Below, one piece after another: positions 1,532-11,379 of a stretch of DNA of 12,617 nucleotides. Within the stretch, counting starts at the first letter, position 1. Every line of letters starts with the position of its first letter. Origin of the DNA: a virus (Duplodnaviria > Heunggongvirae > Uroviricota > Caudoviricetes); the IMG/VR virus record IMGVR_UViG_646862323_000004; one strand, given 5' to 3'. The notes under the pieces were generated by a model that saw nothing but the letters and a program-made list of their open reading frames with translations, made no database searches and was not told the origin of the DNA. The translations under genes and the position numbers were made by a program.

Positions 1532-1741
1532 TTAATTTGAATACAATGCAATTCTCGAGGACTGAAGTTTCTCGCAATTAAAATTTATCAGTTTTACTTT
1601 CTGCTCTCTGGAAACGCCTGCTTCTTTTTTACCTGAGAGCATTTTTTCGCATTCTGATTTCGTTAGTTTAGATTTTGAATATCTTGTCCAGTTAGTAGGA
1701 GTGCCACCTTCCTTTTCAATAGTGGCGGTAATTTTATACAT
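1532..1741 (-). CDS. ydaC: YdaC-like small protein (DUF1187), 69 aa
   Basis: Minus-strand ORF. Start assigned to the ATG at 1741-1739 (MYKITATIEKEGG...) because longer starts would overlap ralR by about 80 nt; the product is then the 69 aa I recall for YdaC. Confidence 0.72.
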   Translation of the reverse strand: MYKITATIEKEGGTPTNWTRYSKSKLTKSECEKMLSGKKEAGVSREQKVKLINFNCEKLQSSRIALYSN

Positions 1742-1984: not shown

Positions 1985-2794
1985 TTATTCCTCTGAATTA
2001 TCGATTACACTGTATTCCCCGGTTAATACAGAGGAATCTGCAGGATCGATTGTCAGTGGTTCCTTTTCATCCATTGATACTGCACGCTGGATCTCAATTG
2101 ATACGGGCAGATATTTGAACAGGCGACGAATAGCCGTTTTCTTTGCCATTTCTTCCCAGTGAGTTACCCACGGCCCGTTATTACCAGCTTTACTCAGGCT
2201 GCGCACCAGCTCAATCTGTTTGCGCGTCATAACTTCAAACTGAGTACCTCCGTCTTTCAGTCTTGCGACAGCATAGACGTGGGTAACCGGGGCATCTTCG
2301 TTTTCTCCCGGGCGGTGTATTAACTTTTCATCAAGGCCAAATTCGAAGCTAAACTCGTCACCTTCACGGACAACACGGGCTGACAGGCTGGCGATTTGAC
2401 CAGAACGGCGAGCCAGATCAATCATGCCGCGATAGCCAATGATTAGCTGAACGTTCTTTTTACCGCTCTTTTCGTTTTTATTACCAAAAGGCAGTAAATA
2501 TGCATGACCGAGGGCGCTACCTGGCTCAAGTCCGAGCTGTGAACACTGTACGATCGCACTGACAAAACTCATAGTGTCACAGTTTCCTAACGCCGGAACT
2601 TTACGAATTTCTGTGGTGGCGATACGGATCATACGTTCAGCCGTCATATGGCGTGGAAGAGCTGCTGCCAGTTGCTCTTTCATTGATGGCTGGTTAATAA
2701 AACTAATCACGTCGCTATTTTTAACTGCTGCTGGTGCACGGTTTCCCTGAGTTTTTTGCAGATCGGCTTTTGCGATTGGTGGTTGCTTAGTCAT
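1985..2794 (-). CDS. recT: RecT single-strand annealing protein, 269 aa
   Basis: ORF translation from the ATG at 2794-2792 ([17 protein letters not shown]...) matches my recollection of RecT over its whole length. The track ORF has 19 extra upstream codons. Confidence 0.93.
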
Positions 2795-3629
2795 TTGCAT
2801 ATTCCTTAGCCCAGCGGGGTAGTGATAATGTCTTAATAGCTGGCCATTCATCGGTATTCAGGCAGTCAGACAGGGTTCGCAGATTGCGGTGATATTCCTG
2901 TTGACCTGCCAGTTTTGCTTCTTCGCCCATCATGAAAATTTCAACCGGATAACGTCCGCATTCAATAGTTGTGCTGGCAACCAGAAAAACGAAAGTTGGC
3001 TGCACTCCAAACTGTGCTTCATAACCGTCACTGTAGAATGCATCCTGAACGTGATAGCGGTAGTCGTAATAAGCGGTTTTGAATCGTTGAATATCCGCCG
3101 TAGTTTTCACGTCCATGATCCAGTGAAATTCAGGGATAATTTTGTCCGGACGGCACCGACACAAAATTCCTGTTTCAGGATCTTCCCAGTAAATTGATGA
3201 TTCAGCGTGTCCGGCGCTTTCAACAAGCCATTGCCCCAGCGGCAAAGCCATAACGCTTTGATACATGAGTTCAATTTTCCGGCCTTCTTCCGCAGTGATA
3301 ACCGTTTTTCCTGTGCTTGCGCATTCCATCAGAAACGCTTTCTCTTCTTCTTTTCCGGCGTTTGTACGGCGGTTAAATTCAGGTGCTACGATAAAGCGGT
3401 TACTGAATTCTTCCGGTTCAAGTACCCGGCAGTGGAAAGCAGTTCCTAAATCGAGCGTTTTTGTCTTTGTGGTGTCCACGGGGGCATTTTTACGCCACAA
3501 ATATAGTGCCGGAGTATCAGCAATGTCATCGAGCTGAGACTTACTGATACCGGGACCCGCGTGGTAATTCTCATTCGAAATTCCGTAATAAATACCTGGC
3601 TCTATGTCTTCTACGATTTTAGTTCCCAT
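2787..3629 (-). CDS. recE: RecE C-terminal exonuclease-domain ORF, 280 aa, out of frame with the recE N-terminal fragment
   Basis: Translation (…[23 protein letters not shown]...[13 protein letters not shown]) corresponds to roughly the last 280 residues of the 866-aa RecE as I recall it. It begins with an ATG at 3629-3627 created by the junction, with no clear Shine-Dalgarno upstream. Confidence 0.8.
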
Positions 3630-3886
3630 GTCATGGAGTCTTTGCTGAGTTGATAGCGTTCACTCCAGGTAAAATCGATCTCACCTTCAGCGGGCAGGTC
3701 ATTAACGACAGGAAAATTCGTGGCAACAGCTTTAAAATAGCTGCTCAGTTTTTTACCTGACTTAACGATCAGGTAGTCCAGAGTGGCACAGGTCGATTCA
3801 AAATCGTTGCTTGCCCACAGGACGACGTCAGGTTCACCGGATGATTTTTTCGCTTTCCGTAACAGGAAGAGTGGTTTTGTGCTCAT
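3611..3886 (-). pseudogene. recE: RecE N-terminal fragment (about 90 aa) ending in a premature TAG after a deletion junction
   Basis: [24 protein letters not shown]...KDSMTWELK is the RecE N-terminus as I recall it, then S-stop. It overlaps the C-terminal ORF by 19 nt in a different frame, so about 500 codons of recE are missing. Confidence 0.72.
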
Positions 3887-3957
3887 TGTTTTTTAACCTC
3901 AACTCAGATTAAAATTCGTTTTGTTCAGTGAATGATCTTGCCGGATACACACTGTTC

Positions 3958-3989
3958 ATAGCCTGCGCCATACGCAGGCTATTTCTTTC
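3958..3989 (+). terminator. Perfect 10-bp hairpin (ATAGCCTGCG / CGCAGGCTAT, 5-nt loop) followed by TTCTTTC on the plus strand
   Basis: Read directly from the sequence at 3958-3982 with the T-rich run at 3983-3989. It lies between racC and recE, antisense to the operon. On the minus strand the stem is not followed by a U-tract. Confidence 0.3.
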
Positions 3990-4263
3990 AGATTTCACCT
4001 TTTAATTTCATTGCAATTAGAGTTGCCAGAAATTCGGCTTTTTTTTCTGCGGGCAGATTCTTTCCGATATGCACCAGGCACATTTTTTTGACACCTTCAT
4101 CAAGTGTTTTTACGTTGCCTGATGGACCATCGATATCAACCACAGTGAATGGGGTTTCTTTATTTTCTGTTTTAATTACGTAGCCAATGCGCTTTCCTTC
4201 CAGATTCACCTCGTGAACAATGTCATCGGTAGTTACAACAGTGGCTTCATAATTGGTAATCAT
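3988..4263 (-). CDS. racC: RacC, 91 aa
   Basis: ATG at 4263-4261 is preceded by AAGGAG at 7-nt spacing. The translation (MITNYEATVVTTDDIVHEVNLEGKR...) matches my recollection of RacC. The track ORF starts 16 codons upstream at an ATG with no ribosome-binding site. Confidence 0.85.
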   Translation of the reverse strand: MITNYEATVVTTDDIVHEVNLEGKRIGYVIKTENKETPFTVVDIDGPSGNVKTLDEGVKKMCLVHIGKNLPAEKKAEFLATLIAMKLKGEI

Positions 4264-4337
4264 GTTTTTCTCCTTAATTAAGGTTGAGCGAATACCTGCC
4301 ATTTCTGGCATAAATTCAGTTTCGAATAGTCAATTAA

Positions 4338-4508
4338 TTAAAGTTCATGTGCCATCTGGTCTTTTTCGGCACAAGCTTCACTGCAATATTTTCTCGGTTC
4401 GTCTTTTGATAAAATCCCGTGCATGAAGTGAAGCATTCTTTCAATAGCTTTGCTTTCTTCAACGTCTTTTTTGCAAAGGTGGTAAGCACATTTTATTTTC
4501 TTAGTCAT
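4338..4508 (-). CDS. ydaE: YdaE-like Cys-containing small protein, 56 aa
   Basis: Hand-translated ORF absent from the track: [56 protein letters not shown]. Its ATG at 4508-4506 overlaps the kilR stop (ATGA). Confidence 0.72.
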   Translation of the reverse strand: MTKKIKCAYHLCKKDVEESKAIERMLHFMHGILSKDEPRKYCSEACAEKDQMAHEL

Positions 4509-4729
4509 CACCATGACTCCGCCTTTACAGGTAAACCATCACGACCGAGGAAGACTTTAATCATGCGGTCAGTAATGCATGTTTTTGTGGTCAGGTTACG
4601 AATATATAGTTTTCGCTTTTTAATATTGTTTGCCGAGGCAATATATGTCCGGCCTTCATGAAGAACATAATCGCCAGGAGTCACACACTGACGTGGTATT
4701 TCATCAGTTCCGAAGTGATGTGCAATCAT
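4508..4729 (-). CDS. kilR: KilR, 73 aa (FtsZ-targeting cell-division inhibitor)
   Basis: ATG at 4729-4727 is preceded by GGAG. The translation ([26 protein letters not shown]...) matches my recollection of Rac KilR in sequence and length. Confidence 0.88.
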
Positions 4730-5170
4730 AATTATCTCCATTTTTACAAATGAACTTTGTTGATGCGGTGCCTGGTGCCTCCAGGTGACTGCAACCAGTT
4801 AACAATTACAGTCGGCTTTCCCACCCAAACCAATAAGGACTAACATGACTTTTAACTGTGCCACGTGCGCTTAGCCGCATTCACCGCATCACAAAATTCA
4901 CTTTAAAAAGGGCGGACATCAGCCGAACTTCAAGAAAAAAACTGATGCCGCCAGGACTACACACAGCAATGTCGTTATTTACAACCGGAGGCGCACTCCC
5001 ACCATTTAAATTTAACAGACAAGACCGACTCTTTATGGATATCGGAAATGCGCCTTCGTGTTGTGCCCGGTTTTATTTCACCACCTCCGGGCTTCGGTGG
5101 TCTCGGCTATACCCCTACAGCGAGAGCTTGTGTTAACATTTCAATACCCTTACAGTTGAGAGTTATTGAT

Positions 5171-5659
5171 ATGTTGGATGTATTTACTCCATTGTTGAAA
5201 CTTTTTGCTAACGAGCCACTCGAAAGACTTATGTATACGATTATCATTTTTGGTCTCACTCTCTGGCTGATACCGAAAGAGTTTACTGTCGCATTCAATG
5301 CTTATACTGAAATACCTTGGCTCTTTCAGATTATCGTTTTTGCCTTTTCTTTCGTGGTCGCCATTTCCTTCTCAAGATTGCGAGCGCATATTCAAAAGCA
5401 TTATTCATTACTACCAGAGCAACGAGTATTGCTTCGTTTATCTGAGAAAGAAATCGCTGTATTTAAAGATTTCCTTAAAACAGGAAATCTTATTATCACT
5501 TCTCCTTGCCGTAACCCGGTTATGAAAAAATTAGAACGGAAGGGCATCATTCAACATCAGAGTGATAGCGCAAACTGTTCTTATTATCTCGTCACCGAAA
5601 AATACTCCCATTTTATGAAGTTATTCTGGAACAGCAGGAGTAGACGTTTTAATCGTTAG
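5171..5659 (+). CDS. sieB: Superinfection exclusion protein SieB, 162 aa, membrane protein
   Basis: Translation from the ATG at 5171 (MLDVFTPLLKLFANEPLERLMYTIIIFGLTLWLIP...) is 162 aa with hydrophobic helices. The 41 upstream codons of the track ORF look non-coding. Confidence 0.9.
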   Translation: MLDVFTPLLKLFANEPLERLMYTIIIFGLTLWLIPKEFTVAFNAYTEIPWLFQIIVFAFSFVVAISFSRLRAHIQKHYSLLPEQRVLLRLSEKEIAVFKDFLKTGNLIITSPCRNPVMKKLERKGIIQHQSDSANCSYYLVTEKYSHFMKLFWNSRSRRFNR

Positions 5660-5811
5660 CTTACTGTGTGCTTCTCCAACCATCGGCGCGCACCAGTTTC
5701 GGTTTTAAATGTTTTGCTTTTGGTATACGTCATGGCAGTGAACGTTCCATCCTGGTTGGGGAACACGCCGCACACCAGGGATTCGTTGTTGCCGAGGTCG
5801 ATTTTTTGCAT
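5656..5811 (-). CDS. ydaF: YdaF-like small protein, 51 aa
   Basis: Hand-translated ORF absent from the track: MQKIDLGNNESLVCGVFPNQDGTFTAMTYTKSKTFKTETGARRWLEKHTVS. Its stop overlaps the convergent sieB stop. Confidence 0.72.
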   Translation of the reverse strand: MQKIDLGNNESLVCGVFPNQDGTFTAMTYTKSKTFKTETGARRWLEKHTVS

Positions 5812-5821
5812 TTTTCGCACC

Positions 5822-5956
5822 TCACATCTTGTTGTTGCGGATAGAGGCTTCTGCTTGCCAGAGATCCCAGTCGTTGCTACGTAAAGCCTGCACAGCCGGG
5901 CTGTAAGTGATACCGCAACAATCCATCAAATACTGAACTACTTCGTAATGCACCAT
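5822..5956 (-). CDS. ydaG: YdaG-like small protein, 44 aa
   Basis: Hand-translated ORF absent from the track: [52 protein letters not shown] ribosome-binding site lies 7 nt upstream of the ATG at 5956-5954. Confidence 0.72.
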
Positions 5957-5978
5957 CTTATCTCTCCCCTTAACGCCG

Positions 5979-6167
5979 GGTGTCGCCTATGGCACCTCCG
6001 CAGGCAGTGCTGGCTACTGGTTTTTACAGTTGCTCGATAGAGTCACGCCCTCACAGTGGGCAGCAATAGGTGTGCTGGGTAGTCTGGTGTTTGGCCTGTT
6101 GACGTATCTGACAAATCTTTATTTCAAGATTAAAGAAGATAAGCGTAAGGCTGCACGGGGAGAGTAA
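5979..6167 (+). pseudogene. 5'-truncated class II pinholin (phage 21 S21 / EssD-like); first 9 or so codons and the start codon missing
   Basis: The in-frame translation [62 protein letters not shown]-stop matches S21 residues 10-71 as I recall them. There is no ATG, GTG or TTG start in frame after the upstream stop at 5946. Confidence 0.75.
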
Positions 6168-6171
6168 TTCA

Positions 6172-6516
6172 ATGACTCAAAACTATGAACTGATTGTGAA
6201 AGGGATCCGCAATTTTGAGAATAAAGTTACGGTAACTTTAGCGTTACGGGACAAAAAACGCTTTGACGGTGAAATTTTAGACCTGGACATCTCGCTGGAC
6301 CGTGTTGAAGGTGCCGCGCTGGAGTTTTATGAGGCAGCAGCCAGAAGGAGCATCAGACAGGTCTTCCTGGATGTTGCTGCAGGGTTATGTGAAGGGGATG
6401 AGCAGTCACCGGAAAAGCGCCCCATAATTTTAGAGGCGCAGGGTGTGTGGATAACCTACAAAGGAAAACTGCCGGGAAGAATTACTGGTTCACTGAAGAC
6501 TCCGCCGAAATGGTAA
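6172..6516 (+). CDS. DUF1327-family protein (Qin YdfR-like), 114 aa, in the lysis cassette
   Basis: ATG at 6172 lies 5 nt after the pinholin stop. The translation (MTQNYELIVKGIRNFENKVTVTLALRDKKRFDGE...) resembles the YdfR family found between holin and endolysin genes in Qin-type prophages. Confidence 0.78.
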   Translation: MTQNYELIVKGIRNFENKVTVTLALRDKKRFDGEILDLDISLDRVEGAALEFYEAAARRSIRQVFLDVAAGLCEGDEQSPEKRPIILEAQGVWITYKGKLPGRITGSLKTPPKW

Positions 6517-6754
6517 TTTCACCAGCATATTTTTCTTCCAGTAATACCGCCAGCCACTTGAAAGAATTTTGTTGTTGCTGGGACCATTTGGGGTTGAGTG
6601 ATTCAAGCTGGAGCGATGCCAGTGTTGGTTGCATTTGTTCCTTGGGAATTGAGAATGCCAGATATGAAAATGCGACAGTAAGGGCATTTACATCATCCCG
6701 AAGCTTGGAAATGCAGTCGAGCAACTCCTGTAGAGAAATGGTGCTATTGTCCAT
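6482..6754 (-). CDS. Hypothetical 90-aa protein of predicted helical character, convergent with and overlapping the DUF1327 gene
   Basis: ATG at 6754-6752 is preceded by GAGAGGA at about 7-nt spacing. Codon usage is coding-like, whereas the competing plus-strand ORF 6447-6779 translates to Ser/Cys-rich junk. I recognise no family. Confidence 0.45.
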   Translation of the reverse strand: MDNSTISLQELLDCISKLRDDVNALTVAFSYLAFSIPKEQMQPTLASLQLESLNPKWSQQQQNSFKWLAVLLEEKYAGEITISAESSVNQ

Positions 6755-6859
6755 AAACAATCCTCTCTATTGTATTTAACTATTCCTTGCCTGATTCAAC
6801 AGGCCGGGACAGATAAACATATCCAGGGTTCAGAAACCGATAAATCCTGATAAATATCC

Positions 6860-7393
6860 ATGAACGCAAAAATCAGATACGGCCTGTCGGCTGCCGTTCT
6901 GGCACTGATTGCCGTCGGTGCGCCTGCGCCTGATATTCTCGACCAGTTTCTGGATGAAAAAGAAGGTAACCACACAACGGCATACCGCGATGGTTCCGGT
7001 ATATGGACCATCTGTCGTGGTGCCACAATGGTGGATGGTAAGCCCGTCATACCGGGAATGAGGCTGTCGAAGGAAAAATGCGACCAGGTTAACGCTATTG
7101 AACGTGATAAGGCGCTGGCATGGGTGGAGCGCAATATTAAAGTACCACTGACCGAACCACAGAAAGCGGGTATAGCGTCATTTTGTCCCTATAACATTGG
7201 CCCCGGTAAGTGTTTCCCGTCGACGTTTTATAAGCGGCTGAATGCCGGTGATCGTAAGGGTGCATGCGAGGCGATTCGCTGGTGGATAAAAGATGGTGGG
7301 CGCGATTGCCGCATACGTTCAAATAACTGCTATGGACAGGTTATTCGTCGTGACCAGGAAAGCGCATTAGCCTGTTGGGGGATAGATCAGTGA
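6860..7393 (+). CDS. SAR endolysin (phage lysozyme, T4-lysozyme/GH24 type; R21/RrrD-like), 177 aa
   Basis: N-terminal Gly/Ala-rich signal-anchor-release segment ([17 protein letters not shown]) followed by the E...D...T catalytic motif ([18 protein letters not shown]). No Shine-Dalgarno is visible upstream of the ATG. Confidence 0.9.
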
Positions 7394-7854
7394 GCAGAGT
7401 CGCCGCGATTATTTATGCTCTGGTTATCTGCATCATCGTCTGCCTGTCATGGGCTGTTAATCATTACCGTGATAACGCCACCGCCTACAAAGAGCAGCGC
7501 GACAAAAATGCCAGAGAACTGAAGCTGGCGAACGCGGCAATTACTGACATGCAGATGCGTCAGCGTGATGTTGCTGCGCTCGATGCAAAATACACGAAGG
7601 AGTTAGCTGATGCGAAAGCTGAAAATGATGCTCTGCGTGATGATGTTGCCGCTGGTCGTCGTCGGTTGCACATCAAAGCAGTCTGTCAGTCAGTGCGTGA
7701 AGCCACCACCGCCTCCGGCGTGGATAATGCAGCCTCCCCCCGACTGGCAGACACCGCTGAACGGGATTATTTCACCCTCCGGGAACGACTGGTAATGATG
7801 CAGGCCCAACTTGAAGGTGCTCAGCAATACATAACCGAACAGTGTTTAAAGTAA
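7390..7854 (+). CDS. rzpR: Rz-type i-spanin, 154 aa from a GTG start overlapping the endolysin stop (GTGA)
   Basis: N-terminal transmembrane helix ([19 protein letters not shown]) followed by a charged coiled-coil region. The track ORF starts 5 codons upstream at a TTG. Confidence 0.85.
7610..7795 (+). CDS. rzoR: Rz1-type o-spanin lipoprotein, 61 aa, nested in the +1 frame of Rz
   Basis: AAGGAG ribosome-binding site before the ATG. Signal peptide with lipobox (LVVVGC) and a proline-rich mature region ([15 protein letters not shown]), entirely embedded within the Rz gene. Confidence 0.88.
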
Positions 7855-7991
7855 AATCTTAACTACAATATGATTCATTTTGATGATTGTTTCATAAGGA
7901 ACAGTGAAGTAAGATCTAAGAGGAGTTAAATTTTATACAGTATAATCATAATATTGCAGCAAGGTGGTTATAATTGAAAGAATATTTAGAT

Positions 7992-9450
7992 ATGAATACA
8001 TCTCATGTAAGAGTTGTTACTCATATGTGTGGGTTCCTGGTTTGGCTCTATAGTCTTTCAATGTTGCCACCAATGGTTGTAGCATTGTTTTATAAAGAAA
8101 AAAGCCTATTCGTTTTCTTTATAACTTTCGTTATATTTTTTTGTCATTGGTGGCGGAGCGTGGTATACAACTAAGAAATCTGGCATTCAATTACGTACCC
8201 GTGATGGGTTTATTATAATTGTAATGTTTTGGATTTTGTTTTCTGTTATTAGTGCATTCCCTTTATGGATTGACTCAGAACTTAATTTAACGTTCATTGA
8301 TGCTCTGTTTGAAGGGGTTTCTGGAATAACAACAACAGGAGCAACTGTAATTGATGATGTTAGTTCATTACCTCGGGCATATTTGTACTATCGGTCACAG
8401 TTAAATTTTATAGGTGGTTTAGGAGTTATTGTTCTGGCGGTTGCTGTATTGCCATTATTGGGTATTGGTGGTGCAAAGCTTTATCAGTCAGAAATGCCGG
8501 GGCCATTTAAGGATGACAAACTCACTCCCCGCCTGGCCGATACGTCACGGACACTGTGGATAACTTATTCTTTATTAGGTATTGCTTGTATTGTCTGTTA
8601 TAGACTTGCAGGAATGCCTTTGTTTGATGCTATTTGTCACGGGATTTCCACAGTTTCGCTTGGTGGTTTCTCAACTCATAGCGAGAGTATCGGATATTTT
8701 AATAACTATTTGGTTGAGCTGGTGGCTGGTTCTTTTTCCCTGCTATCGGCTTTCAACTTCACTCTTTGGTATATTGTTATTAGCAGGAAAACGATAAAAC
8801 CTTTAATCAGAGATATTGAACTTCGTTTCTTTCTGTTAATAGCCTTAGGGGTGATCATTGTTACCTCTTTCCAGGTCTGGCATATAGGTATGTATGACTT
8901 GCATGGAAGTTTTATTCATTCGTTTTTTCTTGCCAGCTCCATGCTCACTGATAATGGTTTAGCTACGCAGGATTATGCAAGCTGGCCCACGCACACGATA
9001 GTGTTTTTGCTGTCGTCAAGTTTCTTTGGGGGATGTATAGGTTCAACTTGTGGTGGAATTAAGTCACTTCGATTTCTTATACTTTTCAAACAAAGCAAAC
9101 ACGAGATAAATCAGCTTTCTCATCCCAGAGCGTTGTTGAGTGTAAATGTAGGAGGGAAGATAGTTACAGATCGTGTAATGAGGTCTGTATGGAGTTTCTT
9201 TTTTCTTTATACTCTCTTCACGGTGTTTTTTATACTGGTGTTAAATGGTATGGGATATGATTTTCTTACATCATTTGCAACAGTGGCTGCATGTATTAAT
9301 AATATGGGATTAGGTTTTGGGGCTACTGCATCGTCATTCGGAGTGCTTAATGACATTGCAAAATATTTAATGTGCATAGCTATGATTCTTGGTCGCCTTG
9401 AAATTTATCCTGTTATTATATTGTTTTCAGGTTTTTTTTGGCGCTCCTAA
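7992..9450 (+). pseudogene. trkG: TrkG potassium-uptake protein gene disrupted by a +1 frameshift (extra C near 8145)
   Basis: Frame 3 reads MNTSHVRVV...FVIFFC then HWWRSVVYN-stop (8172-8174). Frame 1 from 8146 reads IGGGAWYTTKKSGIQLRTRDGFIIIVMFW and continues to 9450. The span is 1459 nt, one more than 486 codons. The region is strongly AT-rich. Confidence 0.85.
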
Positions 9451-10955: not shown

Positions 10956-11249
10956 ATGGATATAAGCCCCTTACTTCATGCACTTTGTGCTGTGGCTGCG
11001 CAGATACTGGTTGGTCTTTTTACCGGAAACTGGGCTTACGGAGCGATAGCCGGTTGTACGTTCTTCATTGCGCGTGAACATACCCAGGCAGAATATCGCT
11101 GGATTGAAATGTTCGGGCATGGCAAGCGAATGAATATGCCGTGGTGGGGCGGTTTTGATCCGCGCGCGTGGGATGTGGCAAGCCTGATGGATTTTGCTGT
11201 GCCGGTGGTGGCGTGTCTGCTGGTCTGGCTGTTGGTTAATCGTGGGTGA
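10956..11249 (+). CDS. Hypothetical small integral membrane protein, 97 aa, about three hydrophobic segments
   Basis: Consensus AAGGAGG lies 4 nt upstream of the ATG. Hydrophobic stretches [32 protein letters not shown] and [19 protein letters not shown] recognise no family. Confidence 0.62.
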
Positions 11250-11259
11250 AAAAAGGTGG

Positions 11260-11379
11260 GCTGTATATGCAACGGAGGAAGAAACCTCGTTGCTGGAAGC
11301 ATGGAAAAAGTATCGGGTATTGCTGAACCGTGTTGATACGTCAACTGCACAGGATATTGAATGGCCAGCACTGCCGTAG
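11260..11379 (+). pseudogene. tfaR: 3' remnant of a tail fibre assembly gene (tfa); conserved C-terminal 35 or so codons only
   Basis: Translation ...[36 protein letters not shown]-stop matches the lambda Tfa C-terminus as I recall it. There is no in-frame ATG; the upstream sequence in this frame overlaps the membrane-protein gene. Confidence 0.7.

Follow-up and report, generated by a model that had tools for sequence, protein, structure and literature searches.

The window, our term for the whole 12,617-nt stretch of DNA analysed here, matches the Rac prophage of Escherichia coli BLR(DE3), a strain of the B lineage, at 100% identity. Its minus strand carries all of the genes from position 1 to about position 4740, comprising intR, xisR, rcbA, ralR, recT, recE, racC, ydaE and kilR. 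RefSeq annotates racC (91 amino acids; 3988–4263, minus strand) on the identical BLR(DE3) sequence and in MG1655, and the neighbouring 5′ part of recE is a 91-amino-acid open reading frame (ORF; 3611–3886, minus strand) that matches Pfam Exonuc_VIII (E = 1.3e-58) and agrees with K-12 RecE residues 1–90 at 90 of 90 positions. These two genes flank a spacer of 101 bp (3887–3987), where the first-pass annotation of this DNA had correctly placed a strong hairpin, and the comparison with K-12 that it called for found the spacer to be identical to E. coli K-12 MG1655 1417387–1417487. Only two positions differ from K-12 across window 3617–5300, window 3986 being equivalent to MG1655 1417486, and because the spacer is identical to that of K-12, published K-12 maps apply to it.

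The RecE frame is broken after residues 1–90 by a frameshift that results from an internal deletion in the window strain. The recE remnant spans 2787–3886 (minus strand), with an overlapping ORF at 2787–3629 that encodes four new residues followed by RecE residues 591–866 (100% identity). Since the recombination-active RecE fragment of a published study runs from residue 588 onward (PMC3945230), the predicted product of this ORF might still be active if it is translated. The K-12 Rac immunity region (racR, ydaS and ydaT) is missing at about window 5660–8200, as judged against two K-12 copies (L002 and L014), so that the leftward operon must be repressed in another way than in K-12. Beyond ydaF and a small hypothetical gene, the gene order is essD, a ydfR-family gene, the rrrQ lysozyme gene, a lysis protein gene and trkG; a partial Rfam match to IS009 at 11247–11345 (plus strand) reached 68.7 bits, below the gathering score of 117.

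The recE and recT genes of Rac, on which RecET recombineering is built, form E. coli's classic cryptic recombination system, and their silence has been debated since the sbcA mutants. The accessible papers state of these mutations only that they activate recE, and one published table enters sbcA as another name for both racC and recE; the placing of sbcA-type mutations in this spacer by the first-pass annotation thus found no support in these papers. The two genes that flank the spacer are also a linked blocker–trigger pair, in which RecE triggers a retron toxin–antitoxin system and RacC blocks it.

Hairpin structure and RNA 3′ ends in K-12

The hairpin is a stem-loop at 3958–3982 (plus strand), described here by its sequence, fold, terminator scan and pair counts, and it lies 5 nt away from the racC stop codon. 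Its left arm ATAGCCTGCG (3958–3967) and right arm CGCAGGCTAT (3973–3982) form a perfect 10-bp stem, with six G–C pairs and no mismatch, around the 5-nt loop CCATA (3968–3972). The T-rich tract TTCTTTC (3983–3989) follows on the plus strand, where the tail TTCTTTCA has the five or more T in eight that the terminator scan requires; the U-tract it encodes is interrupted (UUCUUUC), with a longest U run of 3–4 nt (4 in the table of TRS termini cited below). The minus strand continues past the stem as GAACAGTG, which holds no T-run. A perfect 10-bp stem with a T-tract on the plus strand only, which the first-pass annotation had reported for 3958–3989, is thus read directly from the sequence.

Folding of the plus-strand RNA gave −17.6 kcal/mol (z = −5.73), and the free-energy estimate that had been asked for therefore describes a stable stem-loop; the minus-strand RNA gave −18.8 kcal/mol (z = −5.20), and 0 of 200 shuffles were as good for either strand. 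A consensus scan of the window placed the hairpin second among terminator-like sites, on the plus strand only, the window as a whole holding 14 such sites against 13.0 in shuffles, which is not an excess. Stems of 10 bp or more without a mismatch, around loops of 3–8 nt, were expected 0.11 times per dinucleotide-shuffled window and observed twice. Taken by its sequence alone, the hairpin is unusual, not decisive and not proof of function, and a palindrome that arose by chance and has no function draws its support from the 7.7% of shuffled windows that hold at least one perfect 10-bp hairpin. A second perfect 10-bp palindrome of the window (5466–5491) lies inside sieB, where AAGATTTCCT and AGGAAATCTT enclose a loop of 6 nt; it is AT-rich and without a T-run.

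Two published K-12 data sets list an RNA 3′ end at this hairpin. Term-seq placed one at MG1655 1417486 on the plus strand, equivalent to window 3986, in the class ‘antisense, racC’ (Adams et al. 2021, PMC7815308, supplementary file 1), and the flanking sequence printed for this coordinate is exactly the present hairpin (PMC7815308). The 3′ end in that table is the 51st base of a 61-nt string, as verified on the sgrS row, and the RNA accordingly ends as ...GGCUAUUUCU-3′, four bases past the stem. The file has one sheet for each of three growth conditions and gives the coordinate three times (PMC7815308); in the first two of the entries shown, read counts averaged 185,664 and 146,140 (PMC7815308). 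For comparison, among the LB OD 0.4 entries shown, most on the plus strand had counts of 1,000–20,000, SokC had 66,698 and an FtsO-type end within ftsI had 103,354 (PMC7815308). The counts at the hairpin are far above most of the plus-strand entries shown, and we therefore regard this as an abundant RNA end.

The second data set, a list of TRS termini from LB RNAtag-seq, gives a terminus at 1417483–1417495 on the plus strand, labelled ‘Antisense racC’, with its dominant position at 1417487, equivalent to window 3987 (PMC10687069). Its signal is 0.98–0.998 with an adjusted p value of about 0, and it ranks 151 among all tested positions (PMC10687069). Two independent K-12 maps therefore agree on a plus-strand 3′ end that falls 4–5 bases beyond the stem, inside the U-tract. 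This 3′ end is already catalogued, uninterpreted, in two public lists as an ‘antisense racC’ row. Mapping of 3′ ends on both strands had been proposed as a check, and it found ends on the plus strand at 1417486 and 1417487 and, in 1417400–1417499, none listed on the minus strand by either study (PMC7815308, PMC10687069), an absence of limited weight, since K-12 keeps the operon repressed. The bicyclomycin-based table of Rho regions likewise has no coordinate in 1417400–1417499 (PMC7815308), which is an absence from a list and not a direct assay of Rho.

Term-seq 3′ ends alone cannot tell termination apart from trimming by exonucleases that stop at a stable hairpin, and all of the expression data are from K-12, the window strain belonging to the B lineage and lacking racR. 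An in vivo 3′ end that coincides exactly with the U-tract in two independent studies already contradicts a functionless chance palindrome.

Spacer types and pairing across prophage copies

Collections of genomes and of viral contigs yielded 169 spacer copies, which we reduced to 30 distinct sequences of types A, B and B′. Read on the plus strand, type A (the window and K-12) is ATAGCCTGCG-CCATA-CGCAGGCTAT-TTCTTTC, type B is AGGCCTGCAC-NNN-GTGCAGGCTT-TCTTTTTTTC and type B′, found beside a diverged racC, is GGCCTGCAC-TGA-GTGCAGGCC-TTTTTCC. Types A and B have no sequence relation to each other between the hairpin and the block before recE. A T-run directly follows the stem on the plus strand in all three types (TATTTCTTTC, TTTCTTTTTTTC and CTTTTTCC) and on the gene strand in none of the three.

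Formal pair counts were made for the terminator stem alone, on an alignment of 24 distinct spacers with nine shared stem pairs. All 216 of 216 cells form standard pairs in the plus orientation, and sliding the partner columns lowers pairing to 18–46%. Both sides have changed at two stem pairs, from A–U to U–A at pair 76–98 and from A–U to G–C at pair 84–90. The loops, in at least ten versions, vary around near-invariant stems, which fits selection on pairing. These compensatory changes, the full pairing over 24 distinct spacers and the recurrence of hairpin and T-run in three otherwise different sequence types again speak against chance, an explanation to which we give hardly any credence. Conservation carries limited weight in all of this because the relatives are close, their racC genes being 97–100% identical.

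The substitutions also bear on which strand is read. In the gene-strand orientation 200 of the 216 cells pair, and each of the 16 failures is an A·C or C·A mismatch that corresponds to a G·U pair in plus-strand RNA. Six of seven strand-discriminating substitutions favour the plus-strand RNA (a type-B G·U at pair 77–97 and the changes in L037, the L061 group, L128 and, within a second hairpin described below, L008 and L061), and the seventh, in the loop-closing pair of L040/L098, favours the gene-strand RNA. This 6:1 asymmetry has a one-sided binomial probability of about 0.06 and is not significant by itself; as an argument from sequence for the plus-strand RNA it is suggestive only.

The functional molecule might instead be the sense mRNA, in which the hairpin, coming after the racC stop codon, would stabilise the mRNA, be cut by RNase III or attenuate the transcription or translation that goes on into recE. 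The sense fold is equally good (−18.8 kcal/mol, z = −5.2), and the L040/L098 variant pairs only in sense RNA; yet a U-tract is missing from the gene strand of every spacer type, and the sense orientation alone accumulates A·C mismatches (16 of 216 stem cells, against 0 in antisense). Folding of the entire sense spacer predicts three hairpins, with one of them over the recE Shine–Dalgarno sequence. This weak hairpin of the recE 5′ untranslated region (UTR; 3891–3914, minus strand), predicted from the sense-strand fold and conserved in all spacer types, consists of 9 A/U-rich base pairs between AGGUUAAAA and UUUUAAUCU and would occlude the Shine–Dalgarno motif GAGG. Minus-strand 3′ ends are missing at 1417400–1417499 from both studies, which counts for little given repression of the operon in K-12. 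Silencing of racR derepresses racC, recE, recT, ralR, xisR and intR together, so the hairpin does not effectively block gene-strand transcription. We consider a sense-strand function improbable. The suggestion of the first-pass annotation that an RNA structure here affects read-through from racC into recE thus gained no evidence, since the gene strand lacks a U-tract and racC, recE, recT and genes downstream are derepressed together. A bidirectional terminator, with a U-tract on each side, was not found either; the gene strand continues after the stem as GAACAGTG in type A and CTGAGTGAAG in type B.

The spacer behaves as a set of interchangeable cassettes A, B and B′ (window 3887–3987; loci L008–L167), bordered by the racC stop codon and by the hexamer ATTTTA/TAAAAT, and each cassette occurs either before recE (protein start MSTKPLFLL...) or before a different exonuclease gene (MSTDKQVYPLY...). 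The loop (3968–3972) is found in both orientations on identical stems, as CCATA and TATGG in type A (L024, L027, L051, L052, L086 and L097) and as ACT and AGT in type B (L011 versus L033/L035), which implies that the loop of a perfect palindrome has been inverted repeatedly, and in both of these independent sequence types.

Such an inversion signature, together with a variable A/B cassette that starts right at the hairpin, past the racC stop codon, is what would be expected if the palindrome mattered as DNA, forming a cruciform or a hotspot of template switching at a boundary where prophage modules recombine, with the RNA 3′ end incidental. A role of this kind leaves the one-sided T-run, the wobble asymmetry and the strong strand-specific RNA 3′ end unexplained, and we think it very improbable as an account of the hairpin; it would in any case be compatible with a terminator and not an alternative to one.

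Of 5426 complete E. coli genomes, 1594 (about 30%) carry the 79-nt type-A segment, in single copy and always beside racC. A dispersed repeat or REP-like element was rejected on these same grounds. A RacC-based genome scan for more distant relatives returned Escherichia and Shigella only, plus two metagenome-assembled contigs that are probably E. coli DNA. These contigs, labelled ‘Proteobacteria bacterium’ (L004) and ‘Candidatus Nanosynbacter’ (L007), carry racC and a spacer 99–100% identical to those of E. coli, and their labels are probably a binning artefact or contamination. A match labelled ‘Actinobacillus phage’ proved to be an ordinary type-B spacer.

Probable termination of antisense transcription in the spacer

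Because two 3′-end maps coincide with a conserved stem, a plus-strand T-run and a wobble pattern that suits plus-strand RNA, we interpret the element as an intrinsic terminator for antisense transcription. The hairpin and its T-rich tail very probably form a unidirectional intrinsic terminator on the plus strand, directed against racC and recE. The first-pass annotation had proposed an antisense terminator of this orientation, and that proposal is borne out by the ends at 1417486 and 1417487 on the identical K-12 sequence and by the comparative data. Like canonical E. coli intrinsic terminators, the element has a G+C-rich stem, a short loop, a U-rich tail and a 3′ end a few nucleotides into the tail; unlike them, it follows no annotated gene on its strand and has an interrupted U-tract (UUCUUUC). 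It differs from the bidirectional terminators of convergent genes in being unidirectional, the second U-tract being missing.

RNA polymerase moving rightwards on the plus strand would make the stem-loop and then the U-rich stretch, and the RNA would be released 4–5 nt past the stem. The result would be an abundant plus-strand RNA whose 3′ end lies 1–2 nt short of the racC stop codon, and antisense transcription would thereby be kept within the intergenic spacer. Confining a constitutive antisense transcript to the spacer is a plausible role for the terminator. What is new here is modest, namely the assignment of a known 3′ end to a conserved, unannotated antisense terminator that belongs to a familiar class; it illustrates that comparative sequence analysis can assign uninterpreted rows of public 3′-end catalogues. 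Even if the RNA has no regulatory role, the locus is a clean example of a terminator fencing in antisense transcription.

A candidate antisense RNA and its relatives

The terminator follows no annotated plus-strand gene, and neither MG1655 nor BLR(DE3) has an annotated plus-strand feature at the hairpin. The best candidate for a source of the transcript is a putative sigma-70 promoter at 3886–3915 (plus strand), with a −35 element TTGTTT (3886–3891), an 18-bp spacer and a −10 element TAAAAT (3910–3915). It is the top promoter-like site within 500 nt upstream on the plus strand and ranks 33rd among 125,820 scored configurations in the window, and its −35 element overlaps the recE start codon (CAT, 3884–3886). 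The predicted start near 3922–3923 would give an RNA of 64–66 nt, a putative cis-antisense RNA of about 64–66 nt (3922–3987, plus strand) that has a measured 3′ end and would lie wholly within the racC–recE spacer, complementary to the recE 5′ UTR. Two Cappable-seq supplements list no transcription start coordinates for the region, and the length of the RNA and its own promoter are predictions from sequence.

The block TTGTTT-18-TAAAAT is intact in 131 of 133 copies found by a racC anchor, and the TAAAAT hexamer is kept in 30 of 30 distinct spacers while adjacent bases vary. Divergence between types A and B runs from the racC stop codon to exactly this hexamer. Conservation of the block does not single out a promoter, because the block is also the recE ribosome-binding region and part of the sense-strand hairpin over it.

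When folded from the predicted start at 3922, the type-A RNA forms two hairpins (−24.7 kcal/mol, z = −4.77), as does its type-B counterpart (−26.8 kcal/mol, z = −4.5). The second predicted hairpin (3926–3954, plus strand) abuts the terminator on its 5′ side, with CAGTG (3926–3930) pairing with CACTG (3950–3954). The type-B version pairs GAGTGA with TCACTC, so that the outer pair changes from C–G to G–C around a common AGUG/CACU core, and in the type-B variants L008 and L061 pairing is kept through G·U in the plus orientation only. This 5′ hairpin was left out of the formal pair counts, MAFFT having placed its type-A and type-B versions out of register.

A small protein encoded on the plus strand was considered and rejected. 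The candidate ORFs (GTG at 3928–4005, 25 amino acids, running through the terminator; ATG at 3933, 9 amino acids; 3783–3896; and 3811–3912) were set aside because none has a visible ribosome-binding site and they are not common to the type-B spacer. Rfam 15 returned only chance-level matches over 3887–3990 (E ≥ 0.5; 13–19 bits, against gathering scores of 36–112) and no match on the type-B spacer of L168, and a literature search for a named RNA or a discussion of the spacer found nothing relevant.

On this evidence from sequence and fold, we lean slightly towards a dedicated cis-antisense RNA of about 64 nt, with two hairpins, that would start from the TTGTTT-18-TAAAAT promoter. The less likely, and still serious, contender dispenses with a dedicated small RNA gene. 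The hairpin would then stop heterogeneous long antisense transcripts from spurious promoters in the AT-rich recE and recT genes, or protect them from 3′ exonucleases. Several weaker promoter-like sites do lie 200–500 nt upstream on the plus strand, the two Cappable-seq supplements are silent on a start site, and E. coli has a large set of antisense 3′ ends and commonly makes Rho-terminated antisense RNAs (PMC7815308). Such a by-product sits less well with a very high read count in the entries shown and with a TRS signal of 0.99, which indicates a clean stop. Moreover, the terminator and the TTGTTT-18-TAAAAT block persist before a different exonuclease gene, where a recE-internal promoter would not be shared, and both of the unrelated spacer types fold to the same two-hairpin shape from the predicted start.

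An RNA of the kind we favour would be complementary to the mRNA of the opposite strand; its 3′ end lies inside the racC–recE spacer, and silencing of racR derepresses racC jointly with recE. Being abundant, unannotated and present between racC and recE in about 30% of complete E. coli genomes, it is a candidate regulator of this junction. One possibility, put forward tentatively and by analogy with the action of phage lambda OOP RNA on cII, is that it lowers or uncouples recE expression, through pairing with the racC–recE mRNA or through convergent transcription. The routes could be pairing followed by RNase III cleavage, as with OOP, or polymerase collision at the promoter on the recE start. 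More doubtful still is the full picture in which a constitutive antisense RNA gene of about 64 nt fills the spacer as at least two cassettes (A and B) of the same two-hairpin shape, with the racC stop codon at one end and a shared promoter at the other, and uncouples recE from racC such that the exonuclease is kept off in lysogens or the RecE:RacC ratio is set.

Among characterized systems, lambda OOP appears to be the closest analogue of the racC–recE RNA, and RalA its nearest neighbour. OOP is reportedly a 77-nt antisense RNA of the early rightward operon, with a demonstrated promoter and size and a demonstrated effect on cII that depends on RNase III. Both would be short RNAs directed against a lambdoid early operon, complementary to the mRNA at a gene junction and ended by an intrinsic terminator of their own, with a predicted size of about 64 nt for the racC–recE RNA against 77 nt for OOP. 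They differ in that OOP overlaps the cII coding region at its 3′ end, in a rightward operon, whereas the racC–recE RNA is intergenic in a leftward recombination operon; the two have no sequence similarity, and the racC–recE RNA, which has no Rfam match, is measured at its 3′ end only.

RalA is present in full length at window 1557–1735 (plus strand; Rfam RF02694, 225 bits), antisense to the rcbA/ralR region, and the leftward operon therefore already has one functional antisense RNA gene. It resembles the racC–recE RNA as a plus-strand RNA antisense to the Rac leftward operon. It differs in its length of 179 nt and in its partner ralR, which RefSeq annotates as a type I toxin–antitoxin endonuclease toxin; the racC–recE RNA has no similarity to RalA and lies between two non-toxin genes.

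KilS- and DicF-type small RNAs likewise come from the early-left region of cryptic lambdoid prophages, and in MG1655 kilS lies about 0.9 kb from the racC–recE hairpin. These are gene-strand RNAs, and DicF is trans-acting, whereas the racC–recE RNA shares no similarity with them and is encoded on the other strand. The window itself has weak Rfam matches to DicF at 4910–4965 (minus strand; 39.1 bits, against a gathering score of 48) and to STnc100 at 4722–4908 (35.5 bits), and these matches, within 4722–5002 on the minus strand, coincide with kilS (MG1655 1418405–1418502, about window 4905–5002), upstream of kilR.
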